Source: Arenicellales bacterium
GTDB taxonomy: Bacteria > Pseudomonadota > Gammaproteobacteria > Arenicellales > JAJDZL01
Assembly (NCBI GenBank): GCA_965232345.1
Contig: OZ246969.1
Span: 168-64,167 of the forward strand
Reading direction: 5' to 3'
Length of the DNA stretch: 64,000 nt
The notes beneath the pieces were generated by a model that saw only the letters and a list, made by a program, of their open reading frames with translations, did no database searches and was not told the origin of the DNA. Positions 4,767 through 46,021 of the stretch are shown here, in pieces. Both the position numbers and the translations under genes were made by a program. Numbering within the stretch: position 1 is the first letter of the stretch; the number at the start of each line of letters is the position of its first letter.

Positions 4767-5594
4767 TTAGTTGAATGTGCGTTTTGCGGATAAAGCCGCA
4801 ACCATCATGTCCGCCAGTCTAAGACAGTAAATTTCCGCGAATCCCAAGACATCGGCATTCGGTTTGCTCACCGGATCAGCCGGCGATGATTCTGCCATCG
4901 CGCCCCATAAGTCGACAAAGCGAACGATTCCGACGAACTTCTGGTCGCGATCAATGACCGGCAGGATATCCGCATCAGCCCATTCATCCCACTCAACAGC
5001 CTGCTCAAGCGTCAGTGAAGCATAGATGGGCTTGATAGATGAATTCATGATTCTGGACACCGACTGACGCTCATCGACATGCTGCAGCAGTTCAATCAGT
5101 GAAACTGATCCAAGCGCCTCGTTCTGTTCATTGATGACGTATACACGACTGTAGATGTAGCCCTCATCAATCACCAGTTTCTTTGCTTCTGCGATCAGCA
5201 TGTCGGCGCGGCAGCAAATGGCCGCCGTGTCCATCCAGGCGCCTACCAAGGAGTTCTGGTACCGCAGTGTGATTGAAATTCGAAGCGCCTGACGGCGCGA
5301 GAGCATTCCCAGCAAAGCGGTACGCGCCTCTTCACCTGTGTTTCGAAGAATCGCCGCCGCATCTTTTGGGCTGAGTCGGTTAAGGTACTTGGTGGCTGAG
5401 GCTCTCGGCATCGCTTCCACACACCTGGCGGCTGCTGTCGGCAGCATAGAGCGAAGCGCCAGAACACTCAACGAATCTTCAATCGCCTCAATGAACTCTC
5501 CGGCTTCCTCCGCCTGCAGCTGCTGAATGGCGCTGACTGCGGCCGCACTGTAGCGACTGACGAAGTACTCTGCAATTTTCAAACGCTCAGACAT
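4767..5594 (-). CDS. Soluble MgtE-N domain plus CBS-pair protein (MgtE cytoplasmic-domain paralog without a membrane domain)
   Basis: About 275 aa. It resembles the MgtE N-terminal and CBS region and has no TM segments. The track ORF extends to 5621. The ATG at 5594 overlaps the MscS-like stop by 8 nt. Confidence 0.65.
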   Translation of the reverse strand: MSERLKIAEYFVSRYSAAAVSAIQQLQAEEAGEFIEAIEDSLSVLALRSMLPTAAARCVEAMPRASATKYLNRLSPKDAAAILRNTGEEARTALLGMLSRRQALRISITLRYQNSLVGAWMDTAAICCRADMLIAEAKKLVIDEGYIYSRVYVINEQNEALGSVSLIELLQHVDERQSVSRIMNSSIKPIYASLTLEQAVEWDEWADADILPVIDRDQKFVGIVRFVDLWGAMAESSPADPVSKPNADVLGFAEIYCLRLADMMVAALSAKRTFN

Positions 5595-6426
5595 TCTTCG
5601 ACTCCCGGGCCACCAGAACACTGGGCCGCTCCGAAAACATCTGCGCGGGTATTGTCACCCGTCCTTCCTCTGTATCGAGTATCACCGATACTGACGTTAC
5701 CTCAAGCACCGTGCCTTCGTGCTCACCGATGCGAATTCGCTGCCCCAGGCGGTAATCAGGATTCAGATACCGCACACCGATCAGGTTGCTGACCAGCTGT
5801 CGGGCGCCCAGGCTGAAAGCGATTGCCAGACCGCCCAGCGCGGCACCGATGGTAACCGACAGAATCGTTACTACAATGGTGATATCCACTCCAATCTGAT
5901 CGACACCGATCAGGATGAGAACGATGAGAACGAAAAACTGAGCGACCCGAGAGAGCGCCAGGCGCTGCGATTCTGCAAGATTCACCGCTGCGGTCCCTAT
6001 AGCCTGTCCGACGAGACCGCTGAACACGACACCGGCCCAGATAATCAGCGCTCCAGAAAGAATGTTTGGCAAGTGGTTGACAAGCCGGTTCAGCCAGTCG
6101 GCGAACAAGCCAAGACCGAGCAGATCCGTCGACAGTGCGACAAAAACCAGAATGACAAGCCAGAAAACAATCCTTCCGATGACAAGAGCGAAGGGTTCAT
6201 CAACCTTCGGCAGGACCGGTGTGCCGGCAATCTGAATGCGCGGACGGATTCGGTTGAGTCCTCCGATTAGTCGAACGACTATGATTTTGCTGATTCGGGC
6301 GACAATCCAACCTACCAGCAGAATTCCCAATACAATCAGAAGCTGCGGTAGAAAATTGATGAAGCTCGTCAGCGCATCAAGCGCAAGAAATGCAAGGTAG
6401 GTACCCCAGTTCAGTATCGTTTCCAT
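5587..6426 (-). CDS. Mechanosensitive ion channel family protein (MscS-like)
   Basis: 279 aa. N-terminal TM helices followed by an MscS beta-domain-like stretch (RIRIGEHEGTVLEVTSVSVILDTEEGRVTIPAQMF). Confidence 0.8.
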   Translation of the reverse strand: METILNWGTYLAFLALDALTSFINFLPQLLIVLGILLVGWIVARISKIIVVRLIGGLNRIRPRIQIAGTPVLPKVDEPFALVIGRIVFWLVILVFVALSTDLLGLGLFADWLNRLVNHLPNILSGALIIWAGVVFSGLVGQAIGTAAVNLAESQRLALSRVAQFFVLIVLILIGVDQIGVDITIVVTILSVTIGAALGGLAIAFSLGARQLVSNLIGVRYLNPDYRLGQRIRIGEHEGTVLEVTSVSVILDTEEGRVTIPAQMFSERPSVLVARESKNV

Positions 6427-6607
6427 ATTTTCTGCTCAGTGGCCGGCACCCATACGCGAGTGATCCGACATCTGCGCGAATTTTCTCGAATCACCGCGCT
6501 TTGAGGCAAAAATAATTTGCCAGATATTATAATCGGATAATGTGTTGTTTTTATTGGCGATTGAATAACGCTTGATTCGCTTCGGCATCAAATTTGCAAG
6601 TCAGTGT

Positions 6608-6925
6608 TCACTGCAGGTGTGATTGCAGTGGATTGTGTCGGGAATCCATCTCCGATGACAGGGATGTGCTGACGGTAACTGATGCGCGTCGGGTGTTGAG
6701 ATGGCAATGCTTGAGCAGGCCACGGTTGCGCTCCTCACACTTGGGCATCAGCCGTTCGACCCATTCGCTCAGCTGCAGCTGCCTGACAGTCTGGCCGAGC
6801 GGCATCAAACTTCCAGACAATGTGAGAGTGAGTTTGGTGCCGGCGGTCTCGTAAAGCAGAATGTTGATGGCCTTGTATAATTTCTTTTTGAGGGCTATCA
6901 GGAGAATCGCTAAATTCGCAGGCAC
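6608..6925 (-). CDS. Hypothetical ORF, possibly a decayed transposase N-terminal remnant
   Basis: 105-aa ORF abutting the palindromic element. LQLSEWVERLMPKCEERNRG only weakly recalls the LxxxQWxxIxPLLP motif of IS5-type (DUF4096) N-termini. It may be non-coding. Confidence 0.2.
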   Translation of the reverse strand: MPANLAILLIALKKKLYKAINILLYETAGTKLTLTLSGSLMPLGQTVRQLQLSEWVERLMPKCEERNRGLLKHCHLNTRRASVTVSTSLSSEMDSRHNPLQSHLQ

Positions 6926-6928
6926 TCC

Positions 6929-6994
6929 AATATTTAGGTTAGTGATAATATTTAGGTTAGTGATCGCTGCGAAGCAGTATCACTAACCTAAATA
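6929..6994. repeat. Palindromic element copy A (hairpin with a tandemly duplicated left arm)
   Basis: AATATTTAGGTTAGTGAT occurs twice in tandem (6929-6946 and 6947-6964). It is followed by loop CGCTGCGAAGCAGT and the complementary arm ATCACTAACCTAAATA. A reverse-complement copy lies at 40717-40766. Confidence 0.85.
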
Positions 6995-7395
6995 CTGGCT
7001 TACCTTTTCTTCGTTCTTTGTTCATTATTGGTAGTCATTGGTCAAACTTCATCGGATTCTACTGGTTGGTCTAACAATGATTCAAGTCAACCATTGCTGA
7101 ACCTGTGGGTAGTTGCGGACCAAGTTGCGCCTGTTCGTGAAGCACTGCCAAGTGGTTTTTTTCGGTGGCCGGGCAAAATCATCTCAGAAACAGTTCTTGA
7201 CAAGCAATATTTGGTTACGAATGCGAAGACTCTGCCATATGTATTCTCGACTTAAACTTGGGTCGAGCTAAAGAAAGATGATGGCAGCAGTGAGTCTATC
7301 GGTTGGGTTTATTGGGGAGAGGAGAAAGTTCCAGAGAAAAGTGCAAATTTCACTGCGGTAGCTAAAAACCGATCTCAACTAAATCAATGAACAAT

Positions 7396-41686: not shown

Positions 41687-41947
41687 TTACCAGGTTGGGT
41701 AGGGCCCTTCCATGCCAGCTGAAATCTGATCAAGCTCACCTTCATCCAGTTCGACTGACGGTGGAAGCACCAGGTTGACGACTGAACCGCTATCTTCATG
41801 TACGATAATCTTCAGCTCTTCCGGAATTTCCAGATCCACCTCATCACCGATCGTGGCGACCGGATCCTCTTTCAATCGTGTTCGAAACTCTGAATCTTGT
41901 GCCGCTTTGGCAAAAATCTGGTTTCGAAACTCGTCTACTGTAGCCAT
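41687..41947 (-). CDS. NHLP-type (nitrile hydratase leader peptide family) RiPP precursor candidate, with predicted leader …LDQISAG and 8-aa core MEGPYPTW
   Basis: 86 aa. The sequence is FAKAAQDSEFRTRLKEDPVATIGDEVDLEIPEELKIIVHEDSGSVVNLVLPPSVELDEGELDQISAG. It follows the remembered TIGR03793 pattern (KAxxDxxFRxxLxxDPxAxI … LPE … V.E … LVLPP … LSDEELExVAGG). AGGAG sits 7 nt before the ATG. Confidence 0.7.
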   Translation of the reverse strand: MATVDEFRNQIFAKAAQDSEFRTRLKEDPVATIGDEVDLEIPEELKIIVHEDSGSVVNLVLPPSVELDEGELDQISAGMEGPYPTW

Positions 41948-42095: not shown

Positions 42096-42899
42096 TTATT
42101 GTTTGCTTTCCGGCCGGCTGCCGCGCTTCGCACGTGCCAGTGCAGGCTGGTTTTTTCGTACCGACTTCTTGGAAAGCCAGATCGCCGGACCGCTCAGCAG
42201 ATAGATCAAGAATAGAGTGAACAGCACACGCGGCGGGTCAAACGAAATCAGCGCGATGCCAAACACCATAAGAATGCTGGTGACAAAAGGCACCCGGCCC
42301 CGAACACCGAAATTCTTGAAACTGAGGTACGGCACGGCGCTCACCATGCCCAGTGCAAGAATGAAAAGCACCGCGGTCGTCATTTCGGCCACCAGCGGAA
42401 TATTCCCCTCCCAGCCAGTCTCTATGACCCACATCCAGCCCACCAGAAAGGCGGCGGCCATTGGACATGGCAATCCCTGAAAATAGTTTGGATTGGGCGA
42501 TGATTGAGTGTTGAACCGGGCGAGACGCAGCGCTGTCGCAGAAACATAGAGAAACGCGCAAAGCCAGCCAACCTTCCCCAGACTCGACACTGACCATTCG
42601 AACACCACCAGCGCAGGAGCCAGGCCGAAACTGATCACGTCAGCCAAGCTGTCGTACTCCTTGCCGAAGTCGCTCGTCGTCTTGGTCAGCCGCGCCACTC
42701 TTCCATCAAGTCCGTCCAGCACCGTAGCAATCAATATTGCGATTGCCGCGTATTCGAACTTGTCAACAGAAGCCTGAATAATCGCGAAGAATCCGAAAAA
42801 CAGCGCGCCTGTTGTCAGCAGGTTGGGCAATACATAGATGCCGCGGCGCCGACGCGTGGATTTTCTTCCCGTTGTTGATTTCTTGGTTTCCAATTGCAT
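42096..42899 (-). CDS. pssA: CDP-diacylglycerol--serine O-phosphatidyltransferase
   Basis: 267 aa with the CDP-alcohol phosphatidyltransferase motif DGLDGRVARLTKTTSDFGKEYDSLADVISFG. Confidence 0.9.
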   Translation of the reverse strand: MQLETKKSTTGRKSTRRRRGIYVLPNLLTTGALFFGFFAIIQASVDKFEYAAIAILIATVLDGLDGRVARLTKTTSDFGKEYDSLADVISFGLAPALVVFEWSVSSLGKVGWLCAFLYVSATALRLARFNTQSSPNPNYFQGLPCPMAAAFLVGWMWVIETGWEGNIPLVAEMTTAVLFILALGMVSAVPYLSFKNFGVRGRVPFVTSILMVFGIALISFDPPRVLFTLFLIYLLSGPAIWLSKKSVRKNQPALARAKRGSRPESKQ

Positions 42900-42976
42900 C
42901 AGAAAAGATTGGCGCTGTCAGCATCTGTATTGCTTTCTGTGCATTTTAGCCGCGAAACGGAAGAAAGCAAAGAAGA

Positions 42977-42991
42977 CTGATCGTCAGGCAG
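42977..42991. repeat. 15-bp direct repeat (left putative target-site duplication) CTGATCGTCAGGCAG
   Basis: It is identical to 45388-45402 and immediately abuts the left terminal inverted repeat. Confidence 0.8.
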
Positions 42992-43274
42992 CAATTCTAA
43001 TTTTGGCATGAGCGTCTGATCACTGTTTCTGCCGATGTCATGCAAGTCATTGTATTCATGCGGTTTGAGCGGCTGAGCCGACGGGCCTGACCGAGCTCTT
43101 TTCCGCCTGCTCAAGCGCCCGAATGCGCTGATTTCGGCGCATTTCAGCCCTTCCGGGCGTCATTTTCCGCCATTTCCGCCGCAGTTTGCGTTTTTTTTTC
43201 GCTCCGCGGGTTGACAATATAGACGCAATGGTCTACCATTGGGGTCCATCGGCAATCCGGACGGACTTCAATCG

Positions 43275-43952
43275 ATGGGCAACGCATATTTCGGCTCCAA
43301 AGCGACCAGCGGCCTGTGCCAGCCGCTGATCGCGCTCATGCCTGAACACGATGTTTTCATCGAGTCGCACCTGGGCAGCGGCGTCATCATGCGGCGCAAG
43401 CCGCCCGCGCTGCGCAGCATCGGCATCGACCTTGACCGGCGCGCGCTGGCGCGCTTCAGCTGCGACTATCCGGTGGAGCTGGTGCACGGCTGCTGCCATG
43501 AGTTCCTGCTGAGCTTCCCGTTTCAGGGTCGGGAATTAGTCTACCTCGACCCGCCGTACGTCCGAAGCCTGCGCCGCTCGTCGAGGCGCTACCGCTTCGA
43601 CTACGAGGACGGCGATCACGTGCGGCTGCTCGGGATCGCGAGGTCGCTGCCGTGCCGGGTGATGATCTCCGGCTACAGCGGCGCGCTGTATGACGAGACG
43701 CTGTCGGACTGGAACACGCTGTCGCTGCAGGTGATGAACCAGGCCGGGGTGGTGACCGAGCGGCTGTGGTTCAACTTCGAGCCGGACCGGGCGCACTGGT
43801 GCCGCTATGCGGGCCGGGACTGCACCGACCGCCAGCGCATCCGGCGCAAGGCCGAGCGCTGGGGGCGGCGCTACGCCAAGATGCCGCACGCCGAGCGCCT
43901 GGCGGTGCTGGCGGAGATGATGGCGGCCGAGTCACAGCTGCCGGGGCGATGA
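43275..43952 (+). CDS. DNA adenine methyltransferase (D12 class, Dam-like)
   Basis: N-terminal YFGSK, FIESHLGSG (AdoMet motif I) and VYLDPPY (motif IV). The track ORF starts at a TTG at 43239, and the ATG at 43275 is preferred. Confidence 0.8.
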   Translation: MGNAYFGSKATSGLCQPLIALMPEHDVFIESHLGSGVIMRRKPPALRSIGIDLDRRALARFSCDYPVELVHGCCHEFLLSFPFQGRELVYLDPPYVRSLRRSSRRYRFDYEDGDHVRLLGIARSLPCRVMISGYSGALYDETLSDWNTLSLQVMNQAGVVTERLWFNFEPDRAHWCRYAGRDCTDRQRIRRKAERWGRRYAKMPHAERLAVLAEMMAAESQLPGR

Positions 43953-45286
43953 GGAAGCGGCTGCTGGTCGACCGCCTGATCGGCGCGCTGCGCGGTCTTT
44001 TCGAGACGGTCGGGGACCCGCGCGCCGGGCGCAACACGCAGCTGCGCTTCGAGGACATCCTGATGGCCGCGTTCTCGGTGTTCTTCATGCAGGCGCCGTC
44101 GTTCCTGGAGCACCAGCGGATGTTCGAAAGGTCCAGGGGCCGCAACGCGGCCGGCTCGCTGTTCGGCATCGGCCGGCTGCCCACCGACAACCACATCCGC
44201 TTCCAGCTGGACCGGATCGAGTCGGCCGAGATCTACGCGGGGTTCGACATCCCGCTCGGCATAATGACAGAATATCAAGCGCTTGAGCCCTATCAGGCGC
44301 TGGGCGGGCGCACCCTGATCGCGCTCGACGGCTCCGAGTTCCACAACTCGCGCAAGATCCACTGCCAGCACTGCCAGACGCGGCTCAGGAACAAGGGCAA
44401 GGACAGCGAGCACACCGAATACTATCACAGCGTGCTGGCGGCCGCACTGGTCGGGCCCGGCCACCCCCACGCGCTGCCGCTTCGCCCGGAGTTCATCTCG
44501 CCGCAGGACGGCGACAGGAAGCAGGACTGCGAGACCAAGGCCGGCTACCGCTGGCTGCGCGGCAACGCGGCGCGCTACGCGGCGCTCAGCCCGGTCTACC
44601 TGGGCGACGACCTGTACGCCAAGCAGCCGATGTGCCGCCTGGTGCTTGAGGCCGGCGCCGACTTCATCTTCCGCGTCAAGACCGACGACCACAAGACCCT
44701 GTTCGAGTATCTCGCCGGCATGGACTGGCCGCGCCGGACCGTCGAGCAGCGGACCCCGCGCGGCCGCCCGAACAAGGAGTTCCATTACCTGTGGAGCAGC
44801 TGCAAGCTGCCGCTGGCGGGCGGCAGCAATCCGCTGCAGGTCTACTATGCGGAGCTGCAGATCAAAAACGCCGGCGCCAGAAAACCGACCGCCATCTACC
44901 GCTTCGTCACCTCCATCCGGCCCGGCCCGCACAATGTCGCGGAGATCGTCGCCTGCGGCCGCACCCGCTGGAAGATCGAGAATGAGACCTTCAACATCCT
45001 CAAGAACCAGGGCTGCCACATCGAGCACAACTTCGGCCACGGCGAGAACGGCCTGTCCAACACGCTGCTGACCCTGAACCTGCTCGCCTTCACCTTCCAT
45101 GCGGTGTGCTTCCAGCTGTGCGCGCTGTGGCTGGCGGCCCAGCGGCAGTGCTGCCGCAGACGGCGCTTCTTCCTGACCCTGGACCTGTTCACGCAGTACG
45201 AGCACTTCGGCAGCTGGCGCGCGCTGCTCAGCGCGGTCGCCCACCCCGAGCAGCGGCCGCTCGCCAGATCGCGCGCCCCGCCCTAG
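43949..45286 (+). CDS. DDE-type transposase (IS4/ISNCY-like)
   Basis: ALDGSEF, YLGDDLYA and the C-terminal RTRWKIENETFNILKNQGCHIEHNFGHG block are typical of DDE transposases of the IS4-related superfamily. Its ATG overlaps the methyltransferase stop as ATGA (43949-43952). Confidence 0.8.
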   Translation: MRKRLLVDRLIGALRGLFETVGDPRAGRNTQLRFEDILMAAFSVFFMQAPSFLEHQRMFERSRGRNAAGSLFGIGRLPTDNHIRFQLDRIESAEIYAGFDIPLGIMTEYQALEPYQALGGRTLIALDGSEFHNSRKIHCQHCQTRLRNKGKDSEHTEYYHSVLAAALVGPGHPHALPLRPEFISPQDGDRKQDCETKAGYRWLRGNAARYAALSPVYLGDDLYAKQPMCRLVLEAGADFIFRVKTDDHKTLFEYLAGMDWPRRTVEQRTPRGRPNKEFHYLWSSCKLPLAGGSNPLQVYYAELQIKNAGARKPTAIYRFVTSIRPGPHNVAEIVACGRTRWKIENETFNILKNQGCHIEHNFGHGENGLSNTLLTLNLLAFTFHAVCFQLCALWLAAQRQCCRRRRFFLTLDLFTQYEHFGSWRALLSAVAHPEQRPLARSRAPP

Positions 45287-45387
45287 CTGGTCCAGGCTGC
45301 CCCGCGGCGGTTTCGCGCCGATCATCCGTCATTTTTTTTAACCATGCAGGTGTCAACGATGAAACCTGAGCCCTAAAATTAGAATTG

Positions 45388-45402
45388 CTGATCGTCAGGC
45401 AG
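45388..45402. repeat. 15-bp direct repeat (right putative target-site duplication) CTGATCGTCAGGCAG
   Basis: It is identical to 42977-42991 and contains the psd stop codon (TCA on the plus strand, 45395-45397). Confidence 0.8.
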
Positions 45403-46021
45403 TCGACCCGATTATGTCAGACCCGCCCTTGACTGTGTCTCCAATGCTGACAGAGACGCGATACTCAGGCGGCAGAAACAGCTCCACTCGGGAGCCGAAG
45501 CGGATGAAACCATACTTCTGTCCCTTCTCCACCGTGTCACCCGAGTCGACATAGCACAGAATCCGCCGCGCAATCAGCCCCGCAATCTGGATGCAAGTCA
45601 CTTCGCGAGAATCCTGGGTGCGAATGATGATCGCATTGCGCTCGTTCTCCTCTGCTGACTTGTCCACTGCGGCATTGAGAAACTTGCCGGCTCGATACTC
45701 CTTCCTGACTATCGTTCCGTCAACTGGAATGCGATTCGAATGAACCGAGAAGACATTGAGAAATATCGCAATCCGTGTGGCAGTCTGCCCGCTGATCGGA
45801 TCAATGGCTTCGCCGATAGCAACAACCTTGCCATCTGCCGGTGAGACTACAGAATCCGCATCAGCCGGAACAGCCCTCTGCGGTTCTCGAAAGAACTGAA
45901 GAACGAATAAGGCAATCAGCCAGAATGGAATTGACCAGTATCCACCCGCGGTCAGATTGACAACCAAGGCGGCGAGTAGAGCCGCGGCTGCGAAAGGATA
46001 CCCTTCGCGGGCAAGGCGCAT
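45395..46021 (-). CDS. psd: Phosphatidylserine decarboxylase family protein (short Asd/Psd type)
   Basis: 208 aa with N-terminal TM segments, SPADGKV, and the self-cleavage-type motif FGSRVELFLP. Confidence 0.85.
   Translation of the reverse strand: MRLAREGYPFAAAALLAALVVNLTAGGYWSIPFWLIALFVLQFFREPQRAVPADADSVVSPADGKVVAIGEAIDPISGQTATRIAIFLNVFSVHSNRIPVDGTIVRKEYRAGKFLNAAVDKSAEENERNAIIIRTQDSREVTCIQIAGLIARRILCYVDSGDTVEKGQKYGFIRFGSRVELFLPPEYRVSVSIGDTVKGGSDIIGSTA

Follow-up and report, generated by a model that had tools for sequence, protein, structure and literature searches.

The stretch of DNA analysed here (the window) comprises 64,000 nucleotides (nt) of contig OZ246969.1 from an Arenicellales bacterium (assembly GCA_965232345.1). 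Between the genes psd and pssA it carries an insertion sequence (IS) of 2,402 bp (42989–45390, + strand), delimited by perfect 16-nt inverted repeats, by homologous ends in related elements and by a contrast in guanine-plus-cytosine (GC) content. Two genes of the element are read on the + strand. The first (43275–43952) encodes a protein of 225 amino acids (aa) with a methyltransferase fold and a conserved DPPY motif, which family alignment, a structure model and homology assign to the family of the plasmid protein Upf31. The second (43949–45286) encodes a DDE transposase of 445 aa, recognised by the Pfam model DDE_Tnp_1 (29 bits, cut-off 23). Ahead of both genes lies the sigma-70-type promoter of the element operon, TTGACA-17 nt-TACCAT (43211–43239, +), which matches 10 of 12 consensus positions. 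A candidate operator (43215–43240, +) covers its spacer and -10 box; the half-sites, CAATATAG and CTACCATT, are 10 nt apart.

The start codon of the first gene, ATG at 43275, agrees with homologues and with the gene call on two further loci (L009 and L010). A preliminary description of this DNA had considered the product an active orphan methyltransferase of the D12/Dam-like class on the basis of the motifs YFGSK, HLGSG and DPPY, all of which are indeed present. The family search returned 2,572 matches, of which the best 120 all showed 66–74% identity and a length of about 220 aa. Among the 30 members aligned, GSK, ExHLGxG and DPPY were invariant throughout (E30-x-H-L-G34 and D92-P-P-Y95), and all 30 touched PF02086 at E<1. 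The D12/Dam cut-offs were nevertheless missed by the window protein, with 13.9 bits against 22 for PF02086 and 20.4 bits against 114.85 for TIGR00571. The structure model (predicted local distance difference test, pLDDT, of 78) showed a Rossmann-type core followed by C-terminal helices at residues 183–202 and 205–220; its best structural matches were E. coli Dam and DpnM (PDB 4rtl, 2g1p, 2dpm), at a template-modelling (TM) score of ~0.5 and 13–23% identity. When solved structures were searched with a Upf31-like profile, DpnM alone was found (E 0.02). Motif I and DPPY lie only about 56 residues apart, an interval modelled as nothing but Rossmann strands and helices. The helical DNA-recognition domain of Dam-type enzymes thus appears to be absent from this segment. 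Longer members of the wider family align as two stretches, interrupted by an insertion between motif I and DPPY. Compared with E. coli Dam and DpnM, the protein is alike in its motif IV (DPPY) and its glycine-rich motif I; it differs in scoring below the family cut-offs, in having no recognition-domain segment and in an added C-terminal helical hairpin.

The closest characterised homologue is Upf31 of plasmid pBP136 (45% identity, E 6e-66), whose residues 3–224 align with residues 5–219 of the window protein, the C-terminal region included and DPPY kept. Searching annotated plasmids matched 159 records, 128 of them conjugative, among which was upf31.0 of IncP-1β plasmids; these plasmid-backbone homologues are ~45–52% identical to the window protein. 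Autorepression by Upf31 is documented: with the protein provided, xylE reporter activity from the upf31 promoter dropped from 4.76 units to 0.09 (Mol Biol Evol 2025, msaf062; PMC11997246; preprint 10.1101/2024.02.05.579024). In the same work the likely operator is an inverted CAGCATCG and the C-terminal part was modelled as a dimerisation domain, and neither Dam activity nor a single-molecule real-time (SMRT) methylation signal was detected in ER2796, an E. coli host devoid of methylases (PMC11997246). By nucleotide BLAST, homologues were nearly confined to IncP-1β plasmids, and insertion sequences are unmentioned (PMC11997246). The missed cut-offs together with the properties of this autorepressor thus speak against the active orphan enzyme first proposed.

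The likeness between the two proteins extends over their size (224–225 aa), their full length at 45% identity, the DPPY and S-adenosylmethionine (SAM) motifs and a basic helical C-terminal domain. Each also has its own promoter, which begins TTGACA(G/n)CAT(C/A)G and includes a palindrome whose half-sites are 10 nt apart. They differ in setting: Upf31 is encoded in a plasmid backbone, where a resolvase gene is its neighbour, with KorB as its proposed partner, whereas the window protein is encoded in a chromosomal IS before a transposase gene. The half-sites differ as well, reading CATAG in the window family and CATCG for Upf31.

We then compared the promoter region at 83 loci, representing 38 distinct promoter sequences. 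TTGACA was found at 83/83 loci whatever the transposase type, so that the promoter already proposed at 43211–43239 is conserved in relatives; a scan detected no other promoter-like site before the transposase gene. Positions T9/A10 and T23/A24 were invariant, and the half-sites are separated by 10 nt of freely varying sequence. The core TAG-N10-CTA occurred in 32 of the 38 unique promoters, its extensions ATAG-N10-CTAT in 22 and CATAG-N10-CTATG in 14. The consensus palindrome reads CAnCATAG-N10-CTATGnTG, or TTGACA-nc-ATAG-N10-CTATGG together with the promoter boxes: the left arm emerges from the -35 box, the right arm constitutes the -10 box, and the unusual -10 box TATGGT is accounted for by what the palindrome requires. 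The same geometry stands upstream of pBP136 upf31 (CAGCATCG-N10-CGAGACTG) and of a Xanthomonas plasmid homologue (CAACATAG-N10-CTATGCTG). In the 64-kb window TAG-N10-CTA occurs a single time, at the promoter, against ~1.3 expected by chance, and none was found near the element ends.

Two further observations were made on these regions. On the Xanthomonas oryzae plasmid pCIX2779_1 (L105, about 2400–2470) the palindrome is followed by a second direct copy of ATGACTATGCTGCAGG, and the operators there may be arranged in tandem. In L029, L030, L050 and similar carriers (about 4965–5001) the -10 box ends ~8 nt before the ATG, a spacing that implies a leaderless or nearly leaderless mRNA in many carriers; in the window clade a leader of 35 nt separates the -10 box from the ATG.

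The distribution of the gene was surveyed with one genome per species, which gave 567 confirmed matches, and the best 80 were examined. At 76 of these 80 loci, tblastn with reference transposases identified a transposase gene immediately downstream and in the same orientation. The partners fall into four types: 18 are IS4-like, 31 are IS66 type a (~495 aa), 24 are IS66 type b (~580 aa) and 3 are DDE_5. A methyltransferase-like gene inside an IS, taken in the preliminary description for an oddity of this element, is therefore a recurrent arrangement. Two of the remaining four loci were cut by a contig end and two were without a match to the four reference transposases. The latter two (L045 and L056, both Paracoccaceae assemblies) hold the gene at 5001–5660 and the promoter with none of the reference transposases downstream, and may be decayed elements or represent a fifth partner type. 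A supposed fourth partner family of arginine- and proline-rich proteins was discarded, since tblastn against the reference transposases identified its members as wrong-frame open reading frames (ORFs) in GC-rich DNA.

Apart from the cassette, the host elements look like ordinary members of their families in their ends and duplications: IS66 carriers have GTAACTAC… or GTAAGCGG… at their termini, and duplications of 8 bp flank those type-a copies that were checked. When an IS4-like carrier was compared with an IS66 carrier, similarity started only a few nt upstream of the TTGACA -35 box. Relatives of the window element that are devoid of the gene have the same ends and a different, palindrome-free promoter, and in a neighbour-joining tree of the protein the transposase types are mixed. 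The carriers occur in assemblies of Arenicellales, Pseudomonadales, Paracoccaceae, Caldilineaceae and Rhodothermales (Proteobacteria, Chloroflexota and Bacteroidota), with 5 to >10 copies in many genomes. At one locus (L013; 4001–6152 and 7948 onward) two IS66-type carriers lie ~4 kb apart, and at another (L034; 5669–6520 and 8143–8670) the transposase gene of the carrier is interrupted by ~1.6 kb of other DNA. Both arrangements suggest that transposition is active and nested in these genomes.

The junction between the two genes varies with the carrier. In the window the stop codon of the first gene (TGA, 43950–43952) overlaps the ATG of the transposase gene (43949–43951), and the ATGA at 43949–43952 agrees with the translational coupling suggested earlier. 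The overlap is likewise 4 nt in IS66 type b, and is replaced by a gap of ~3–4 nt in IS66 type a and of 21 nt in L001. We also considered a fusion protein made by -1 frameshift, as the transposase frame is open upstream. This was rejected: the junction is not conserved and no slippery site was evident. In the literature found, we met no report of an IS-borne methyltransferase or Upf31-homologue cassette shared by IS66, IS4-like and DDE_5 elements; ISfinder lay outside this search, and its curators may already have noted this ORF in individual entries.

We think it rather probable that the promoter, the operator and the Upf31-family gene make up a portable promoter–operator–repressor cassette governing transposase expression, with operator binding and repression transposed from Upf31 by homology. 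What leads to this reading is the full-length homology to a shown autorepressor, combined with a palindrome of the same geometry and the placement directly ahead of the transposase gene. In such a scheme the Upf31-family protein would dimerise through its C-terminal helical hairpin and the dimer would bind the palindromic operator across the -35/-10 region. The bound protein would then shut off the single transcript encoding itself and the coupled transposase, in a negative feedback. Transposase would probably be produced in a burst on entry into a cell without repressor, and at a low level afterwards. An effect of the protein on transposition is what we infer from this scheme.

Several points weigh against a repressor cassette. 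Repression is transferred from a homologue of 45% identity. The window operator is the least symmetrical of all: its right half is CTACCATT, not CTATGGTG, and 4/8 positions are symmetrical. The protein tree that mixes the transposase types is without bootstrap support. In addition, the invariant DPPY, GSK and ExHLGxG would be more readily understood if SAM or adenine binding, or catalysis, still mattered, and the methylation test of Upf31 was made in a strain without the operator and was reported as negative 'under our experimental conditions' (PMC11997246).

The last two points lend real weight to the main rival, an active orphan N6-adenine DNA methyltransferase. Such an enzyme would methylate either the element, at its promoter or ends, or the genome, and so gate transposase expression or end recognition, or protect from restriction in transfer. 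We regard this as possible but rather unlikely. It agrees with DPPY and SAM-binding motifs invariant in 30/30 members, with E. coli Dam and DpnM as top structural matches and with the contact of 30/30 members to PF02086 at E<1. Adenines are moreover present in the conserved half-sites, and methylation could take effect at the -10 box, which the palindrome overlaps; the Upf31 test, lacking the operator sequence, leaves room for it too (PMC11997246). The scores of 13.9 bits against 22 and 20.4 against 114.85 argue in the other direction, as does the stretch of ~56 residues from motif I to DPPY, from which a Dam-like helical DNA-recognition domain appears to be missing. Upf31 itself, with the same motifs intact, showed no Dam activity and no SMRT signal (PMC11997246). 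Anti-restriction would be of little use to a single chromosomal IS copy, and direct support for epigenetic control of transposition was not found in this analysis. The gene might instead be a passenger without a role in transposition, a plasmid-type gene picked up by chance and carried for the benefit of host or plasmid. Homologues at ~45–52% identity in plasmid backbones, and the 128 conjugative plasmids among the 159 matched, could be cited for this. Yet the gene always lies upstream of the transposase gene, on the same strand, overlapping it or within about 20–35 nt, with four kinds of transposase at 76/80 loci; no promoter-like site other than its own precedes the transposase gene; and the IS-borne clade is tightly conserved (66–74% identity). 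A passenger is accordingly improbable in our view.

Put more boldly, as a speculation that we hold to be unlikely, the cassette would be a portable 'transposition governor' captured repeatedly by unrelated IS families (IS4-like/ISNCY, two IS66 lineages and DDE_5). In its strongest version the protein would be an operator-restricted adenine methyltransferase whose mark, rather than mere occupancy, sets the state of the promoter. If true, the cassette would be a self-contained epigenetic switch, with transposase fired after replication or upon arrival in a naive cell. The apparent inactivity of Upf31 in an operator-free host would then be explained, as would the role of the unexplained inverted-repeat clusters of IncP-1β plasmids.

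The boundaries of the element follow from its ends. An inverted-repeat search placed the left terminal repeat, CAGCAATTCTAATTTT, at 42989–43004 (+) and the right one, AAAATTAGAATTGCTG on the plus strand, at 45375–45390 (−). These repeats had been described as 13 bp long; they are real and perfect, and their true length is 16 nt. The left ends of relatives (L001–L008 and L050–L061) are CAGCAGTTCTAATTTT, CAGCAATTCGAATTTT and CAGCAGTTCTCATTTT, homologous to the left end in the window. As stated in the preliminary description, identical 15-nt direct repeats, CTGATCGTCAGGCAG, flank the element (42977–42991 and 45388–45402); no further copy was seen in the 64 kb with up to 2 mismatches allowed. Each 16-nt inverted-repeat arm shares 3 nt with this direct repeat, which leaves two readings of the target duplication.

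Related insertions distinguish between them. We examined 14, namely the two of L001–L002, the six of L003–L008 and six of a third relative (L050–L061). The L001/L002 relative, whose transposase is 65% identical, is present as two copies in one genome, identical over 2,465 bp; these start CAGCAGTTCTAATTTT and finish AAAATTAGAATTACTG, with 9-bp duplications AATAAATAC and CACTGAATC. A 61%-identical relative without the first gene (six copies, 1,543 bp, ends CAGCAATTCGAATTTTGG…AATTCGAATTGCTG) has 9-bp duplications at 6/6 copies, and the third relative (2,143 bp) has them at 4/6. Altogether, 12/14 insertions show 9-bp duplications directly outside CAG…CTG and the remaining two show no duplication. 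These two copies of the 2,143-bp carrier, L050 and L051 (about 4910–7052 in each), have no matching duplication beside them, which suggests recombination between copies in that genome.

Accordingly, the target-site duplication in the window is 9 bp, ATCGTCAGG, with its left copy at 42980–42988 and its right copy at 45391–45399, the latter holding the psd stop codon. The 15-bp identity is the sum of these 9 bp and of 3 bp of element end on each side which match the target by chance, because the target read CTG-N9-CAG and so mimicked the element's own ends; the uninterrupted target is predicted as ...AAGACTGATCGTCAGGCAGTCGACC.... Over nine insertions (L001–L008 and the window) a weak flank bias was visible, with CTG or CTA upstream in 4/9 and xAG downstream in 5/9. 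The bases beside the duplication (42977–42979 and 45400–45402 in the window, and the flanks of L001–L008) thereby mimic the CAG/CTG ends as CT(G/A)-N9-(T/C/A)AG, and this may reflect a target preference.

That the whole 15-bp repeat is the true target duplication, and that the element belongs with IS1202/ISTde1-type elements making 15–18 bp duplications, is in our opinion very improbable. The repeat is perfect and unique in the window, and on random expectation a chance match of 3+3 nt between the element ends and the target would arise only about once in 4,096. But related insertions with homologous ends have exactly 9 bp outside CAG…CTG in 12/14 cases and none in the other two, the inverted repeat is perfect through CAG/CTG, and the weak flank bias over nine insertions makes the coincidence less improbable than one in 4,096. 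The earlier proposal of a 15-bp duplication is thus replaced by one of 9 bp, and the link to the IS1202 group, which depended on it, loses its support too: on this evidence the duplication of the window element is not of the 15–18 bp IS1202/ISTde1 type.

The composition of the element sets it apart from its surroundings, as had been noted. Its interior has 65.2% GC against 52–54% in the 10 kb on either side, and GC at third codon positions reaches 0.91–0.94 in both element genes against 0.60–0.65 in psd, pssA and ilvC. On these grounds the element is clearly foreign in origin. The long stop-free antisense ORFs listed earlier as a sign of foreign origin do exist. The one of 484 aa at 43871–45325 (−), within the transposase gene, was read as no gene; such frames are the expected product of GC-rich coding DNA, given the very high third-position GC (0.94 in the transposase gene). 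A 220-nt stretch separates the left end from the promoter. The Rfam scan gave no RNA family beyond one sub-threshold suhB/mmgR match in that stretch (43140–43205, +; 24.7 bits, gathering score 41, E 0.053), probably a chance hit.

Concerning the transposase, an alignment of 15 homologues showed conservation of D127, D220 and E344, which would constitute an intact catalytic triad. Homologues in the protein collection numbered >7,800, and a profile search of solved structures gave no match. The N-terminal domain DDE_Tnp_1_assoc (PF13808) was detected below threshold, at 15.5 bits against 32.3, with relatives at 25–27 bits. None of the NCBIfam IS-family models came near its cut-off for the window transposase: the IS4 models NF033591 and NF033592 gave 24 bits against 152 and 13.9 against 115, and the ISAs1 model NF033564 gave no match, a relative (P0011) scoring 10.7 bits against 70. 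The mention of ISNCY in the preliminary description is borne out by the annotation of relatives from cyanobacterial plasmids, 38–40% identical, which are labelled 'ISNCY family transposase' in RefSeq. With these IS4-superfamily 'ISNCY' elements (for example in Nostoc punctiforme pNPUN02) the window transposase shares this identity and the DDE_Tnp_1 domain, and it differs from them in reaching no NCBIfam IS-family cut-off; no clear terminal repeats were found for the Nostoc relative. A fair description from sequence comparison would be an IS4-superfamily transposase of a lineage without formal classification. The ISAs1 family and the ISMae2 group presumably have CAG-type ends and duplications of 8–10 bp (9 bp for ISMae2).

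The insertion lies between psd and pssA and reads against them, as described before. The gene for phosphatidylserine decarboxylase, psd (45395–46021, −), is intact (NF003680, 290 bits against a cut-off of 262), and pssA, for CDP-diacylglycerol-serine O-phosphatidyltransferase, occupies 42096–42899 (−; TIGR00473, 119.8 bits against 107); ilvC and ilvH are found further right of psd. The psd stop codon (TCA at 45395–45397, TGA on the minus strand) lies within the right repeat copy, as had been seen, and the element starts 4 nt beyond it. The gap between the two genes now amounts to 2.4 kb, filled by oppositely reading DNA. In two related genomes whose psd is 82–84% identical (L103 and L104), ilvH-ilvC-psd-pssA are contiguous: the psd–pssA interval measures ~110 nt and holds no element. 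An empty site rebuilt from the window sequence could be aligned with both of them through the psd end and the pssA start; these are related species rather than the same strain, and so support insertion and do not represent a strict empty-site allele. They were used after an exact look-up of the 206-aa psd product gave no record. The identical insertion was found on a metagenome contig (L009).

The search for other copies and empty sites called for earlier thus succeeded in part: relatives are present at 2 to >10 copies per genome and related species have an unoccupied psd–pssA interval, while no second copy was seen in the window and one copy only was seen in this genome. With terminal inverted repeats, a flanking duplication and an intact transposase gene, the element is an intact, recently acquired IS, in keeping with the foreign IS initially described. 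By parting psd from pssA, two steps of phosphatidylethanolamine synthesis, the insertion raises the question of pssA expression. In the host DNA left of the insertion we read from sequence a weak candidate pssA promoter, TTGCTT-16-TAAAAT (42943–42970, −), which failed the scan rule of 4/6 matches per hexamer and is poorly conserved in L103 and L104; transcription reading through the element is the other candidate source. Just left of pssA, an 86-aa ORF (41687–41947, −) scores above the cut-off for the NHLP leader-peptide family (TIGR03793; 57 bits, cut-off 50.9), whose members are precursors of ribosomally synthesised and post-translationally modified peptides (RiPPs); this suggests a peptide natural-product locus.

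IS-encoded repressors of transposase genes are not new, InsA of IS1 and OrfA of the IS3 family being the older ones. Arc is described as an IS-encoded repressor in IS605-family elements (bioRxiv 10.64898/2026.09.24.754181). The window protein is like Arc, InsA and OrfA a small accessory protein, encoded by the element and proposed to keep its own promoter and transposase production low. Those regulators are ribbon-helix-helix or helix-turn-helix proteins belonging to a single IS family each, whereas the window protein has a methyltransferase fold and its cassette accompanies several unrelated transposase families. Another comparison is with host Dam, which gates transposase expression and end recognition in IS10 and IS50 through GATC sites. 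If the protein methylates its operator, it would be an analogue of this control, in which methylation of the -10 box or of the ends gates transposase expression and ties it to replication or to arrival in a new cell. The enzyme acting on IS10 and IS50 comes from the host and its site is GATC, while the window element would carry a putative enzyme of its own. As far as we found in the literature, the new element here is a methyltransferase-fold homologue of Upf31 as a module shared across families.

Insertion sequences are usually seen as a transposase and its ends, and the known accessory regulators are each tied to one family. That one tightly conserved cassette (66–74% protein identity) should serve three or more unrelated transposase families suggests a general and transferable means of holding transposition in check. 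Upf31, a mechanistically unexplained plasmid protein, gains from this a larger natural context and a defined candidate operator. For annotation the finding is a warning: thousands of 'DNA adenine methylase' genes in genomic and metagenomic data may be repressors of transposase genes and, if they are so mislabelled, counts of orphan methylases and of defence genes in symbiont metagenomes would be inflated.

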